A DNA stretch of 64,000 nt from positions 46,748,001-46,812,000 of the forward strand of contig OX597833.1 in assembly GCA_951406725.2 (NCBI GenBank), in the 5' to 3' direction. The position numbers and the translations under genes are program-made. The notes under the pieces are model-generated. The model saw only the letters and a program-made list of their open reading frames with translations, was not told the origin of the DNA and did not search any database. This stretch comes from Octopus vulgaris. Its lineage: Eukaryota. This document shows positions 3,355-54,820 of this stretch, piece after piece; position 1 is the stretch's first letter; the number at the start of each line of letters is the position of its first letter.

Positions 3355-3720
3355 ACAGTTCTATATTTAAGAGATGAGGAATTATGTACATTACTTACAT
3401 TATTTACATTTGACAGATATTTGTCCTCATCTTGTTTGTTGTTAACACGTTTCGGCTGATATACCCTCCAGCCTTTTTCAGGTGTCTTGGAGAAATTTCG
3501 AACCTGGGCTCTCACTCCTAAGGTATTTTTCGATGTTGTTATTATTATGATTATAATTATTATTGTCATTGTTCAGGTTCCTGCTTGGAATCGAACTCAG
3601 AATCTTGGGGTTAGTAGCCCGCACTCTCAACCACTACGCCATATGCCCATGGGCATATGTTAACAATAAACAAGATGAGGACAAATATCCATCGAATGTA
3701 AATAATGTAAATAATGTACA
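3355..3720 (-). mobile_element. tRNA-headed element with a hammerhead-like motif and an inverted 3' tail, inserted in a family-A SINE
   Basis: TSD agtatttat (3346-3354 / 3721-3729); A box TGGCGTAGTGG (3641-3631); B box GAGTTCGATTCC (3598-3587); degenerate HHR core CTGAAAA-A-GGCTG..CAGCC-GAAAC (3486-3444); tail 3384-3447 inverted at 3658-3720. Confidence 0.7.
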
Positions 3721-3952
3721 AGTATTTATTATTTGTTAATGACTGGTACTTATTCCATTGGTCTCTTTTGCCAAACAACTAAGCTGCTGGGATGTAAACA
3801 AACCCACACTGGTTGCCAAGTAGTGGTTGGACAAACATAAACACATACACAACAACAGGGTTCAACATAGTTTCTGTTTACCAAATTTGCTCACAAAGCA
3901 TTTGTCTGTCTGGGGCTATAGTAGAAGTCAACTGCCCAAGGTGCAGCACAGT

Positions 3953-4264
3953 GGAGGCGCCATCCAACCAAAATGCAAAAATATGGGAAACTACCACCTG
4001 TGTCATCTCTTGTGAAAGGTAGAAGAGTCCAGTTTGCTGGACATTGTTGTAGAGCTGAAAAAGAGGTAATTTCTACTCTTCTCCTCTGGAAGCCATCTAC
4101 TCGCAATACCAGAGGGCGCACACTCTCCTACCCTGATGTAATCTCCAGGGATACAGGCATCCAGCAACAGGACCTCCATAATGCTATGATGGACCGTGAA
4201 GTCTGGCGTAGCATGGTAAATTCCATTGTGTCGACCACAGTTGAACAATGATGATGATGATGAT
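3953..4264 (+). mobile_element. 5'-truncated RTE-clade LINE (ORF C-terminus + (TGA)n tail) inserted in a family-A SINE
   Basis: HPTK..YGKLPPVSSLVKGRRVQFAGHCCRAEKEVISTLLLWKP...AMMDREVWRSMV is a typical RTE-type C-terminus; (TGA)n tail; the host SINE resumes at ~4265. Confidence 0.8.
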
Positions 4265-4430
4265 GTGGGTGTGAACCCCAAACTATGTGGTTGCAAAGAG
4301 TGCTTTTTAACCACATAGCCACGTCTCCAAGAAAAAAAAGAGAAAAAGAGAGAGAGAGACAAAGGTACAGGATGGTCAGCACATCTTTAAGTATCGATAG
4401 ATCTGCTAGAACAAAGCTAACTTGGGTTAA

Positions 4431-4738
4431 CCCCTTACCCAACAATTATTTTGAAAATAAATGTATTTTTTCAGACATATTTTTTAATTGTTTTATTTTA
4501 CTATGTTTTGAATGGTGATTTCGAGGTATATTTCAAACCTTATTTATTATGAATTTTAATTCAATAATATTGATTTTAAATTACCGCTTTGGGCAGAAAC
4601 GAGTTAACCCGTTTTTAGACGAAGGAACTTGTTTGCTGTCGATTTTGGCGAGACTATCTTTTGACGAGTTAACTCGCCAGAGATAGAAAAAAACGATTTC
4701 GGTCAAAACGCATATATTCGTTTCTGCCGGGTAAGGGG
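4431..4738. mobile_element. piggyBac-type MITE
   Basis: Perfect TIR CCCCTTACCC / GGGTAAGGGG flanked by TTAA on both sides (4427-4430, 4739-4742). Confidence 0.75.
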
Positions 4739-4851
4739 TTAAGCAACAAAAGCAATGACAACAACATCAACAACAAAACTGTATATTTCAAAAAAAAAAA
4801 AAAAAAAAAAGAGAGAGAATGATTGTCAATGAACAAGAAAAAATCATTTAC

Positions 4852-50990: not shown

Positions 50991-53956
50991 CTGCACTCAC
51001 ATAAAATAGAATTCTAGATGAATTAGGAGAATCATTAATAGTTGAAGGCATGGTTGTGTGGTAAGAAGTGTGCTTTCTAACAAGGTTTTTAGATGTAATC
51101 CCACTGCATGGAGCCTTGTGAGTGAATTTGGTAGATGGAAGCTAAAAGAAGACTGGGGTTAATGTAACTGACTAGCCCCCCCACCTCTCAATTTCAGGCC
51201 TTGTGCCTATAGTAGAAAAAATTATTATTATTATTATAAGCCAGCAAGCTAGCAGAATCATTAGCATGCCAGGCGAAATGCTTAGTGGTAATTCTCCTGT
51301 AGCTACATTCTGAGTTCAAGTTCTGCCAAGGTTGACTTTGCCTTTCATCTTTTCAGGGTCAGTAAATTAAGTACCAGTTGAGTACTGGGGTCGATGTAAT
51401 CAACTTAATCCCTCCCACCAGATTTCAGAATTATTATTATTATTAAATCAACTTACCCCCTCCCCCGAAATTACTGGCCCTGTGCCAAAATTTCAAATTA
51501 TCATCATCATCATCATCATCATTATTATTACTATTATTATTATTATTATTATTATTATTATTAGAAGTGTGTCACATCATATTAAAACTCCCTCTGCTGA
51601 TTTGTTGTTTTCACTTTCCCCGGCAATAACAGCTGTTAAATCCACCCCAGGCCTTCATTTAACCGAAGGTAAGCTTCATAGGGTAAAACCCCAAATGAGT
51701 TGTTATTTTTACATTTGGATATAGAGCACAGAGAGAGAGATAGTGTGTGTGTGCGTGTGTGTGTAGTTAAGTGTACATGTATCTGTATGTTATGTTTAAT
51801 TGTATGTGTTTGATAGCATATGTGTATTTGTGTATCTCTAAATGTATTTGCATATTCATTTGTTTGTGTGTAAATGTGAGTGAATGTATATCTAAGTGTG
51901 TCTATATGTAGCTCAGCAAGTGTATGTGTGTTTCTGTGTATCTCTAAATATGTCTGTGTCTAAATATGTGCACTGGAGTATATTTAAAAGTGTCTAAGTA
52001 CAGCTAAGTGTATATACATCTATTTGTGTATATATGTGTGCATATGAGAGTGTATCTCATGTCCATGTGTACATCTAAGTGTGAACCACCCTCAACACTC
52101 CAAAGTATTACATTAGCCAAATACAACAGAAAACCTGCTGTCAGATATCCATTCACAAACATGTATAGATGCAGGTATGGCTGTGTGGTTAAGAAGTTTA
52201 CTTGCTAATAACATGGTTTCAAGTTCACTCCCACTGTGTGGTACCTTGGGCAAGTGGCTTCTACTATAGCCCCAGGCCAATGAATGATTTTTGAGTGGAT
52301 TTAGTAGATGGAACCTGAAAGAAATCTATGATATCTACACATCCACCTTTTGCCATTCTTCTATCTTATTGTTTCATATTCTCATACCTGGACTTCACAT
52401 CTCTCTCTCTCTCTCTTTCACTTTCCCCGTGGTCAAGCCATGTATTCACCTCTTCAGCAAGACACCTGCTCGGTTGAAGGATCTTATTTTGCAGGTTCTT
52501 AGTGACCTTACAGGTGCTGGTGCCATATAAAAAGCACCCAGTACACTCTGTGAAATGGTTGGCATCAAGAAGGGCATCCAGTTGTAGAAATCATACCAAA
52601 GGAGACATAGAACCTGGTAGAGCCCCTCCTTCTCATCTGTTCCAGTCAAAAAGGATGTATGATGATGATGTACACATATATATATATATATATATATATA
52701 TATTAAATTAGAGATAAAACCACTATTAGGCAAATCAAACAGTGAAAAGCATAAACCAAAACATAGAAATAGATTTAATTAATATAATATTAAATCTAAT
52801 TTTTCCCTGTAAGTTTGGATTTACTCCCTAATATTATTATTATTATTATATATATATATATATATATATATATATATATAGAGAGGAGAGAGAGAGAGAG
52901 AGAGAGAGAGAGAGAGAGAGAGAGAGAGAGAGAGAGAGAGCATATCTTGGAAATAGAATTAGAAATAAAATTGCTAATGTTGAATTTAGAACTTATAGAT
53001 TACCCTTATTTGAACTAATGATATGAACTTGTGTTGAGAGAGAGAAAAGGATAAATTCTGTTGCTTGTTTCAGTCATTGGACTGCAGCCATGGTGAGACA
53101 TTGTCTAAAGAGATTTAAAAAGGATTTAGTCAGTCAAATCAACTGCAGTACTTCTTTTAAGTTTGGTACGTATTCTATCGGGCTCTGTTTGACAAACTGC
53201 TATGCTATGGAGATATAAACAAACCAACACTGGTAGTCAAATTGTGAGAAACAAACACGAACATGCACTCAGATATGTATACACACATATAAATCATCAT
53301 CATTTAACGTCCACTTTACCATGCTTGCATGGGTCAGATGGAACTCATTGAGGCACGTTCTATACGGCTGGATGCCCATCCTGTTACCAACCCTCACCTG
53401 TTTCCAAGTAAGGTAAAATTTCTCCATGGTGAAACCTGGTTATCAGGAAAGACTAAAAATGATCAACACCACTTATATAACAGTGAGATACATTTACAAC
53501 CATCACATGATGTCGAGAGAAGGGTATATACAACTCTCCTCCCATATACATATCCACTTCTAGGGTTTCATTACTCCTGAAGGAGGAACCCCTCTCTGGA
53601 CTCTTTCCCCTGCTGCCTATCTTTGGCCAGTCATGACCATGTAGGCCCCAGAAGGCGGGAAAGATCATCTCACCATCTTGTCTTTGGTCAGCCTCTTGAC
53701 CTTGTCCATTGTCTTGGTATTCTTTCTGTTGACCCAATTGTCCATCTGTTGTCCTTCAGTCACACAATGTGGCAAGCCCATCTCTAAAGTAAGTCGAAAG
53801 GTAAGCTACTATAAATCGGCACAAACTTTCTGGACAACCCAATATATATATATATACACACACATACACAATTAAGGATAAAATCATTATAAAAATAATG
53901 ATCTTATCAGTAGCCAGTATGTAATAAAAACCATATAGGTAAGAATTAATATAGAT

Positions 53957-54215
53957 ATAATTATAATTAAAGGTACTGAGAAACAGAACCTACACACTAG
54001 AAATAGATATCAAATGACTCTAAAACCACATCATTTTTTACACTCCATTAGCACAGGTTGAAAGTGAGGTAAATTTATTATTATTTTTAATTCATTTAAC
54101 TCGCTTTCAACCTCTGCTAAAGAAGTGTAAAAAAATTATGTGGTTTTAAAGTCATTTGACGTCTGACGTCTATTACTAACATGCAGGTACTGTTTCTCAC
54201 CTTTAATTATAATTA
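53957..54215. repeat. Imperfect long hairpin (~120-bp arms)
   Basis: 53957-54077 is the reverse complement of ~54094-54215. Confidence 0.75.
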
Positions 54216-54265
54216 TTATAATTATATATATATATATATATATATATATATATATATATATATAT

Positions 54266-54672
54266 AGGCATAGGAGTGGCTGTGTGGTAAGTAGCTTGCT
54301 TACGAACCACATTGTTCCAGGTTCAGTCCCACTGAGTGGCACCTTGGGCAAGTGTCTTCTAGTATAGCCTCGGGCCGACCAAAGCCTTGTGAGTGGATTT
54401 GGTAGACGGAAACTGAAAGAAGCCTGTCGTATATATGTATATATATATGTATGTGTGTGTGTGTTTGTGTGTCTGTGTTTGTCCCTCTAGCATTGCTTGA
54501 CAACCGATGCTGGTGTGTTTACGTCCCCCTCACTTAGCGGTTCGGCAAAAGAGACCAATAGAATAAGTACTGGGCTTACAAAGAATAAGTCCAGGGGTCG
54601 ATTTGCTCGACTAAAGGCTGTGCTCCAGCATGGCCGCAGTCAAATGACTGAAACAAGTAAAAGAGTAAAGAG
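54266..54672 (+). mobile_element. Family-A SINE
   Basis: Consensus match. Confidence 0.9.
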
Positions 54673-54680
54673 AGATATAT

Positions 54681-54820
54681 AAAGGGAAAGTTTACGAAAA
54701 TAAACAAAAGACGAAGAGAGGTGGTGTACAAATAAACAGATGTATTAGTATAGTGCTCAAGAATAGAAAAAGTCTTTTACGTTTCGAGCCTACGCTCTTC
54801 TACAGAAAGGTACACAGAAA
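54681..54820 (-). mobile_element. Second copy of the CTGTAGA-hammerhead element
   Basis: Matches 7372-7512; HHR at 54809-54774. Confidence 0.65.

Follow-up and report, generated by a model that had tools for sequence, protein, structure and literature searches.

Minimal hammerhead motifs in an octopus genomic window as probable 3′ ends of Penelope-like element insertions, with one tandem retrozyme

What kind of element places nine hammerhead ribozyme motifs in one stretch of octopus DNA, and do such elements spread without proteins of their own? We analyzed a 64,000-nt stretch of Octopus vulgaris (the window, used here for this whole stretch), in which a first-pass annotation had recognized at least six families of short hammerhead elements and read them as protein-free ribozyme retroelements mobilized by Penelope enzymes. 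All nine motifs are present where they had been placed, with the sequences originally read. The core boxes and stems I and II of the minimal type I hammerhead are present, with some peculiarities of the core (A6U in family A, U4C in E, an extra C in B and a broken copy of F). We regard the observation as largely confirmed and its interpretation as partly supported; the system is of a known kind, and the content of the window is mostly known biology.

Nine motifs and the elements that carry them

The features of the window are:

3356..3648, minus strand: 3′ end of a Penelope/Poseidon-type element (family F), with tRNA-derived segment, (AAT)n, hammerhead and 85-nt tail
3576..3648, minus strand: tRNA-derived segment of F, undetected by Rfam; A-box-like motif 3641-3631, B-box-like motif 3598-3588
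3444..3486, minus strand: F hammerhead, disrupted here by G8A and by the absence of 3 nt at the cleavage site
3658..3720, plus strand: 63-nt inverted 5′ copy of the F tail with 92% identity
4852..5122, minus strand: first coding exon found of the host gene (putative name PPP1R16, from the first-pass annotation); splice donor 4851
7370..7565, minus strand: family A copy 1, flanked by (TA)n tracts; hammerhead 7502-7467, A6U core
21578..21980, minus strand: family B copy 1, which includes about 300 nt of the parent's 3′ UTR (UTR match by eye); hammerhead 21666-21606
21983..22134, plus strand: inverted 5′ copy of the B tail, without the 5′ strand of the core
23385..23590, minus strand: family C copy, related to A; hammerhead 23521-23489, canonical core
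30402..30813, minus strand: family D, a 364-nt protein-free unit (30765-30402) with 48 nt of the previous unit's 3′ end upstream
30675-30633, minus strand: D hammerhead, U3-A8 core, GUC site
46180..46330, minus strand: family E inverted copy; hammerhead 46319-46282; optional tail 46248-46180
46345..46423, plus strand: family E main copy; hammerhead 46348-46385, U4C core
46419..46621, minus strand: family B copy 2; hammerhead 46586-46526
54675..54820, minus strand: family A copy 2; hammerhead 54809-54774, A6U core

A strict minimal-hammerhead descriptor found four sites in the window (7498, 23518, 30669 and 54805, all on the minus strand); 100 block-wise dinucleotide shuffles gave 0.02 on average and at most 1. 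Family B, with its extra C before G12, family E, with a U4C core and an A-U closing pair, and the broken F copy escape this descriptor; for them the motif calls come from hand-anchored stems together with repeat-family membership. Exact copies of the motifs in the genome number 114 to 16,336 depending on family, with 0 in reversed controls; B and E were assessed from 40 scored candidates each in place of an exact count, and first-look candidate numbers are not copy numbers (2,920 candidates for D compared with 114 exact motifs). Chance matching in low-complexity DNA is therefore a negligible explanation, even though a descriptor lacking the 5′ bulge does return junk (six matches, of which two are among the nine and four are not). 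Rfam gave no hammerhead among the 150 of 312 window matches that were listed.

The motifs do fall into six repeat families, but these are not all unrelated: A and C align with z = 11 against shuffles, whereas the other 14 family pairs have z ≤ 3.1. MAFFT across families left the stems unaligned, and the hammerhead stems were anchored by script; in that arrangement the pairs that differ between families occupy the same positions, and within the D group the stems covary (see below). Insertion in (TA)n tracts is seen for A, B, C, D and E but not for F. Stem III, described as tiny or palindromic, is a true palindrome in A, C, D and F, as it is in an intact element, H, found elsewhere; B and E have an imperfect 9-nt version. 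The inverted ends are real (B at 21983-22134, the E pair, F at 3658-3720), as is the partial tandem, which belongs to D.

Upstream walks in genomic copies of A, B, C, E and F reach a GIY-YIG endonuclease frame on the same strand, and these families are therefore 5′-truncated 3′ ends of protein-coding Penelope-like elements (PLEs). For F, 28 of 30 ORF-end copies run on into the tRNA-like segment and 23 of 30 also into the ribozyme, and RT and GIY-YIG frames or motifs are seen at two parent loci (L273, L275). The ORF was reached at eight of 25 upstream-selected E loci, with the ribozyme detected in five of the eight, and in three of 20 canonical-core A loci (L224-L226); L226 has an RT-thumb-like frame, and the walks on B, C and E ended short of RT. 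Family B has a same-strand ORF at one of 24 loci (L041), where the ribozyme lies about 850 nt past the GIY-YIG end, and the same ORF, inverted, at L047. The C link was found at one of 25 upstream-selected loci (L426); a GIY-YIG frame beside a C copy in L062 was rejected as its ORF and belongs to element H instead. No ORF was reached by any of 30 A6U copies or 30 unselected C copies, so those subfamilies may be non-autonomous. At two of 30 A6U loci, about 370 nt match the canonical-A parent UTR at 72-77%.

The parent frames seen for A, B, C, E and F are all broken or partial. Full RT plus GIY-YIG in one element was found only in element H, an intact young PLE (784-aa RT plus GIY-YIG) with many open copies and its own U3-A8 hammerhead. 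A CX2-5CxxC-type cysteine linker is present in H and in the parents of A and C, a different cysteine linker in B and E, and none in F; clade labels for the parents are based on this linker motif only, and we tentatively take the B and E parents to be Nematis-like. F, whose parent has no cysteine linker, is also the only family outside (TA)n.

Very probably, then, all nine motifs belong to PLE insertions, at whose 3′ ends they form minimal hammerhead folds; five families derive from protein-coding PLEs, and the sixth, a tandem unit of 364 nt that encodes no protein, likely relies on a PLE enzyme for its copying. The proposed Penelope connection stands: the minimal hammerheads are of Penelope type with a dimer-type stem III, many thousands of them occur in the genome, and the insertions bear Penelope marks. 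The PLE RT/GIY-YIG protein would likely nick AT-rich DNA, mostly (TA)n; reverse transcription would start at set positions 35-230 nt beyond the hammerhead, and the enzyme would usually drop off or fold back early. Insertions made in this way would have a constant 3′ end and differ at the 5′ end, with inverted 5′ pieces and a tail that only some copies carry. These four features are all seen in genomic copies, and A, B, C, E and F carry the fixed 3′ end, 5′ truncation, inverted 5′ copy and optional tail as terminal-repeat marks. With a start near the hammerhead and an early stop, nearly every stub would keep its hammerhead; single genomic stubs would nevertheless be expected to lack activity, since two copies are needed to form stem III.

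Much of this matches published PLE biology. The available text of Cervera and de la Pena (2014; PMC4209133) describes animal genomes with numerous heterogeneous minimal hammerheads, most of them solitary, which are ascribed to probably truncated PLEs and include a U3-A8 core. These share with ours the type I layout, the short palindromic stem III, an extra base between A9 and 10.1, the many families per genome and opposite-strand pairs 100-700 nt apart, whereas that text lacks the family-wide A6U, B's extra C before G12 and the closing A-U pair of D and E. The 5′ truncation, partial tandems, inverted 5′ copies and optional tails, as well as (TA)n targeting tied to a cysteine linker, are likewise found in the EN+ clades Neptune, Nematis and Penelope/Poseidon in the part of Craig et al. 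(2021; PMC8557442) available to us, with the difference that our families are assigned by linker alone.

A tRNA-derived segment in family F

What is unusual in this window is that one Penelope family carries a tRNA-derived segment, possibly its own promoter. The segment lies directly after the stop codon of the parent PLE. It aligns to a genomic tRNA-Arg with a score of 59 (300 shuffles gave 27 ± 4.7, maximum 49) and is called by ARAGORN in relaxed mode; it was not called a tRNA by Rfam, and a pattern for one tRNA type gave no match. Short F copies have a tRNA-derived 5′ head with A- and B-box-like motifs, the arrangement of a SINE head, and exact matches step from 496 to 3,755 across the start of the segment. 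Of 30 head-bearing copies, 26 extend no more than 10 nt into the parent UTR, and the parent PLE itself carries the head. A stand-alone SINE, which the passage from head to ribozyme in 27 of 30 copies had suggested, is not the whole story: four of 30 extend into the parent UTR, and two of these four reach the ORF.

The copy-number step may reflect a Pol III-driven, SINE-like offshoot. As a tentative proposal from sequence features, a Poseidon-type Penelope would have picked up a tRNA-derived Pol III promoter just past its stop codon and in this way given rise to a SINE of its own. This would be an RNA of 290 nt, made up of tRNA head, hammerhead and Penelope tail, that the Penelope RT would have copied to roughly ten thousand loci or more. 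We lean slightly toward a different origin of the step, a stall or fold-back of reverse transcription at a short hairpin. A short palindrome spans the start of the segment and many copies invert there, A and C also have clustered 5′ ends yet no tRNA, and the Rfam result is in keeping with this reading. The coincidence of the boundary with tRNA position +1 and the retention of A- and B-box-like motifs argue for a Pol III start instead, as does, weakly given a T content of only 24%, the lack of a run of four T in the 293-nt F unit, unlike the other five families.

If the short F copies are Pol III products, SINE-type parasitism would extend to Penelope elements, and F would be a Penelope-dependent SINE caught with its parent, a Penelope counterpart of TRIMp3; if they are not, the finding is repeat annotation of a known kind. 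In the review text available (PMC6765202), the Schistosoma Sm-alpha hammerhead SINE-like repeats similarly place a Pol III-type promoter ahead of a hammerhead; F differs in that a protein-coding PLE holds the tRNA-derived segment within its 3′ UTR, and in that F copies are dispersed with PLE-type inversions. TRIMp3 elements (Cassandra, Helenus, Ajax), as far as the accessible portion of Kojima (2024; PMC10886601) describes them, likewise carry, within the terminal repeat of a retroelement, a Pol III promoter that derives from a small RNA; SINE insertion is proposed there as its origin. They are LTR elements without a repeat shared with an autonomous partner, whereas F is a PLE whose autonomous parent itself carries the segment. 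F-like sequence occurs in many contigs from runs that we guess to be RNA; these are silent on starts, strand and level.

A tandem retrozyme, variant cores and the role of cleavage

Family D fits the description of a non-LTR retrozyme and is the sole family of the six that is a protein-free tandem unit. The unit is short, non-coding and arranged head to tail with one hammerhead each; when doubled, its longest frames are 31 aa in sense and 56 aa in antisense. The previous unit's 3′ end precedes 15 of 30 loci, the 3′ ends cluster in two spots, with 16 at 362-364 and another 12 at 298-305, a trimer is present on C6, and a sister subfamily about 80% identical is likewise tandem. Across 22 sequences of D and its sister, 96.9% of cells are paired and seven of 13 pairs change on both sides, a level reached by none of 500 shuffles, although the 22 sequences form about three subfamilies, so that these counts stand for few independent events. 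Rfam gave no match for D at E values up to 10 and no hammerhead for the sister unit.

D was likely copied by a PLE enzyme. It would be transcribed from tandems, in which the palindrome would let two hammerheads pair and release RNA of unit length. A comparison with 10 parent-type loci for an autonomous partner gave no similarity beyond chance. PLE frames near D copies (L087, L285, L305) were rejected as its own, being from another element or on the opposite strand. In the accessible text on animal non-LTR retrozymes (Cervera and de la Pena, 2020, PMC7229834; Li, Clavereau and Pollet, 2026, 10.64898/2026.07.22.740005), the units resemble D in being non-coding tandems of about 360 nt with one type I hammerhead each, low GC, monomers and short arrays, and PLE-type insertion marks; D, described here from sequence, differs in its U3-A8 core.

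The odd cores noted in the window are family-wide except in F, where the variant is decay of a single copy. Exact genomic counts give 16,336 A6U motifs and 181 canonical ones; U4C occurs in 77 of the first 100 C matches listed (by eye), and CCGACGA in 36 of 44 E copies. Position 7 of A, a free core position, has 41 T, 27 A, 20 C and 12 G in the first 100 matches listed (by eye). The core is canonical in 23 of 26 B copies and in 41 of 66 F copies found without the ribozyme as query; the window copy of F, decayed at 3486, belongs to a minority (8 of 66) lacking 3 nt at the cleavage site. Lunse et al. reportedly described further PLE core variants in 2017, and the variants of A, B, D and E may already be in print there. 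Our literature search covered papers rather than Repbase, Dfam or supplements, which may hold these families, and found no octopus or cephalopod report, tRNA-bearing PLE or A6U core.

What role PLE hammerheads play is an open question in the available parts of PMC8557442 and in PMC11167929. The cores of the most amplified subfamilies of A, C and E are expected to be inefficient at cutting, so these subfamilies likely need no cleavage to spread. An alternative of real weight, though somewhat short of probable, is that the fold is kept as a protein-binding or RT-positioning signal and that the variant cores are attenuated or dead. The prevalence of A6U, U4C and CCGACGA speaks for it, as do reports that changes at position 6 and U4C reduce hammerhead activity (PMC3088659, accessible part), that anole PLE ribozyme mutants still insert in vitro while the ribozyme cuts only with protein (PMC11167929), and that eight of nine Xenopus retrozyme dimers showed no cleavage (10.64898/2026.07.22.740005, accessible part). 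Against it, D and its sister keep GUC in 22 of 22 sequences, the 5′ strand of the core, and a self-complementary stem III whose central palindrome pair takes three forms, a pattern that fits selection for dimer cleavage; the mostly canonical cores of B and F point the same way. For A, C and E, a non-catalytic role is compatible with the origin from PLE 3′ ends.

With A6U and U4C fixed in the most successful ribozyme subfamilies, it becomes testable whether PLE hammerheads are kept for cutting. The genome offers natural test pairs in sister subfamilies with canonical and variant cores; it also has a young retrozyme whose dimer palindrome comes in three interchangeable forms, and element H, intact and young, could supply the protein.

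Protein-free origin and the host gene

The idea that all six families are independent protein-free ribozyme retroelements holds for D only and, for the set as a whole, is very unlikely and already largely refuted. Most copies are indeed 150-400 nt long without an ORF, and 5′ ends are clustered in A, C and F. However, A, B, C, E and F are continuous into a GIY-YIG frame, head-to-tail units are not their rule, and copies of B and E, like the longer ones of A and C, begin at varying points of a shared UTR.

The window had also been called intronic, with most motifs on the strand of the host transcript and thus embedded in its pre-mRNA if the gene extends over the region. One coding exon of the minus-strand gene was found (4852-5122), with no Pfam match and no meaningful PDB match; a search for the next exon, exact or with 3 mismatches, gave none in the 20 kb below the window. 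An intronic position is shown for F only; the other eight motifs lie upstream of the start codon of this exon. The only copy linked to the pre-mRNA is a broken one. Eight of nine motifs are on the minus strand (p = 0.04), but motifs are not independent, and by insertion the bias is weak (seven of eight, p = 0.07). Regulation of the host gene by cutting of its pre-mRNA would agree with this orientation but is highly improbable given that p value, the broken state of the intronic copy and the inactivity of single minimal hammerheads in vitro (PMC4209133, available text). RNA-like contigs of three runs, guessed to be RNA although none is recorded as such, splice at 4852.

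Nine hammerhead motifs in six repeat families

All nine hammerhead motifs proposed in the first-pass annotation were found in the window sequence, and they belong to six families (A-F), every one a dispersed repeat.

7502 and 54809: hammerheads of family A
21666 and 46586: hammerheads of family B
23521: hammerhead of family C
30675, minus strand: hammerhead of family D
46319 and 46348: hammerheads of family E
3486, minus strand: hammerhead of family F

The motifs and families are real, and of a kind already known. A strict descriptor, too narrow for B, E and the F copy of the window, matched four times in the window, whereas 100 shuffled versions averaged 0.02 matches. 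When stems were anchored, the same stem positions held different Watson-Crick pairs between families, and stem III was self-complementary in A, C, D and F. Exact motif counting across the assembly (2.8 Gb, 227 contigs) returned 16,336 motifs for A with the U6 core, 181 for A with the canonical core, 7,388 for C, 114 for D and 4,879 for the F body motif; reversed-pattern controls gave 0 every time. The elements had been described as unrelated, which is incorrect for A and C: these are akin (z = 11), so the six families represent five lineages. In both A and C a short motif is conserved about 20 nt past the cleavage site (7440-7455 and 23455-23470, minus strand); it complements the 3′ strand of stem II and, judged by eye, could form an alternative pairing.

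Core variants are family traits, except in F. Position 6 is U in 99% of A, with position 7 free to vary; U4C was present in 77 of the first 100 C copies listed, CCGACGA in 36 of 44 for E and U3-A8 in 23 of 26 for D, and B is canonical (23 of 26). The F core had been called decayed, as it is in the window copy; 41 of 66 F copies have a canonical core. Because variant cores are family traits, changes at hammerhead positions 4 and 6 lower activity (cited portion of PMC3088659) and PLE (Penelope-like element) insertion in vitro is independent of the ribozyme (cited portion of PMC11167929), cleavage appears dispensable for the big subfamilies, which would have spread without need of it. The variant cores themselves are probably weakly active; A6U, U4C and others may already be in print (Lunse et al., 2017). 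Stem III of B and of E in the window (46526-46586, 46348-46385) are exact mutual reverse complements over 9 nt, and each is imperfect with itself, so that a B-E heterodimer would pair better than either homodimer. This complementarity may be chance.

The minus-strand host gene, putatively PPP1R16, has a coding exon at 4852-5122, spliced at 4852 in contigs from three presumed-RNA runs; the next exon was not found in the 20 kb below the window. An intronic position was upheld for F only, a broken copy, and the proposed minus-strand excess (7 of 8 insertions on the host gene strand) is weak (p = 0.07). At a sampled locus elsewhere (L024), a minus-strand frame at 2666-3155 adjoins an A copy and is an exon that resembles a ligand-gated ion channel of acetylcholine-receptor-like type. 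Other repeats in the window are as follows.

5939-6396, 39795-40897, 58922-59466, 61561-62004: tandem arrays of 184-217-nt units, common SINE-like repeats
8968-9329, 21373-21548, 50694-50903: tandem arrays of 62-66-nt units, common SINE-like repeats
1357-1954, 30799-31748, 43245-43562: LINE-type RT frame fragments, no kinship to the ribozymes

Five families as ends of Penelope-like elements

The elements had been proposed to be protein-free, which stands for D and fails for A, B, C, E and F, all linked to PLE ORFs. Copies have a fixed 3′ end, mostly abutting (TA)n, and a variable 5′ end, frequently with an inverted 5′ piece. For B, a single strand of one locus (L041) encodes the C-terminal end of GIY-YIG, followed by a UTR and, about 850 nt on, by the B ribozyme; a second locus (L047) has the same ORF inverted. 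Canonical-core A had an upstream GIY-YIG frame with a CX2-5CxxC-type linker in 3/20 loci; the ORF was reached in 0/30 A6U loci, two of which have about 370 nt of UTR in common with canonical-core A. C was linked to an ORF in none of 30 unselected loci and in one of 25 chosen for upstream sequence (L426). In 8/25 similarly selected E loci the ORF lies about 1.2 kb upstream, with the ribozyme detected in five of the eight. GIY-YIG linkers are similar between the B and E parents. Finally, 28 of 30 F ORF-end copies, one being the query, continue into the element that the window contains. The F parent encodes RT and GIY-YIG without a linker, a combination that the criteria in Craig et al. (PMC8557442, in excerpt) assign to the Penelope/Poseidon type; F alone lies outside (TA)n, which fits this assignment. 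The elements were probably mobilised by PLE RT and GIY-YIG protein.

Minimal hammerheads number thousands per animal genome, are heterogeneous and mostly solitary, and are attributed to truncated PLEs in the cited portion of Cervera and de la Pena (PMC4209133), where the U3-A8 core and opposite-strand pairs also appear. Such a zoo was therefore to be expected.

The tRNA-derived segment of family F

About 20 nt past its stop codon, F contains a segment of 73 nt (3576..3648 in the window) in which motifs resembling the A and B boxes occur. The segment scored 59 against tRNA-Arg, its highest score among the 30 genomic tRNA loci listed (shuffles 27 ± 4.7, maximum 49), and by this similarity is tRNA-derived; an Rfam search of it gave no tRNA call. 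Of 30 copies located through the segment alone, one being that of the window, 27 are followed by the ribozyme and 26 extend at most 10 nt into the parent UTR. Exact 31-mers numbered 496 just upstream of the segment, 3,755 within it and 4,879 downstream, and survived in 12/30, 8/30 and 8/30 ORF-end copies, the first inflated by the query. Together these values indicate a 5′ extension in roughly one of ten head-bearing copies; in the first 90 Mb of contig C1 the raw upstream:within ratio was higher, 29 to 100 (rows counted by eye).

Tentatively, the short copies could be a Pol III-driven offshoot; no T4 run was found in the F unit, which is weak evidence. RT stalling at a hairpin there would account for the copy-number step as well, and 5′ ends are clustered in A and C too. 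For the possible offshoot, the nearest parallels include Sm-alpha (review PMC6765202) and TRIMp3 (PMC10886601), both as excerpted. No tRNA-bearing PLE was found in the literature searched.

Family D, a retrozyme

Tandem structure and covariation identify D (30402..30813, minus strand, in the window) as a retrozyme. Its 364-nt unit lacks a long frame, and the 3′ end of a previous unit precedes 15 of 30 motif-picked loci, three pairs of which are the same genomic place. Dimers and one trimer are present in the genome. The ribozyme lies within a rod (z = −5.6). Across 22 copies of the D group, hammerhead stems were 96.9% paired and 7 of 13 pairs altered on both sides, and in the dimer palindrome the pair at the centre was G-C (10), U-A (9) or A-U (3), with few independent events behind either count. 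A sister subfamily (L471-L493), about 80% identical, is tandem too, with 343-360-nt units (G000:C14:6981033-6981776) and two other palindromes. D matches the non-LTR retrozymes in the cited portions of PMC7229834 and bioRxiv 10.64898/2026.07.22.740005, and D-type hammerheads would cleave as dimers. The 3′ ends of D lie at two positions separated by 60 nt, reminiscent of an anole PLE in which RT starts at two sites (PMC11167929, in excerpt).

No PLE partner of D matched among the parent-type PLE loci compared. A candidate, by age only, is 'H', whose 784-aa frame for RT and GIY-YIG overlaps a 446-aa frame lying upstream and is open in many copies; H has its own U3-A8 hammerhead with a 33-nt tail and is a good protein source for in vitro work. 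'G' is another PLE family.

L219 4213-7841 (minus), L216 2045-4396; G000:C9: 'H', young intact PLE in 4.4-kb tandems
L087 about 450-1350 (minus); L222 3175-3842, immediately right of the window: 'G', GIY-YIG end and a hammerhead-like motif whose stem II is long
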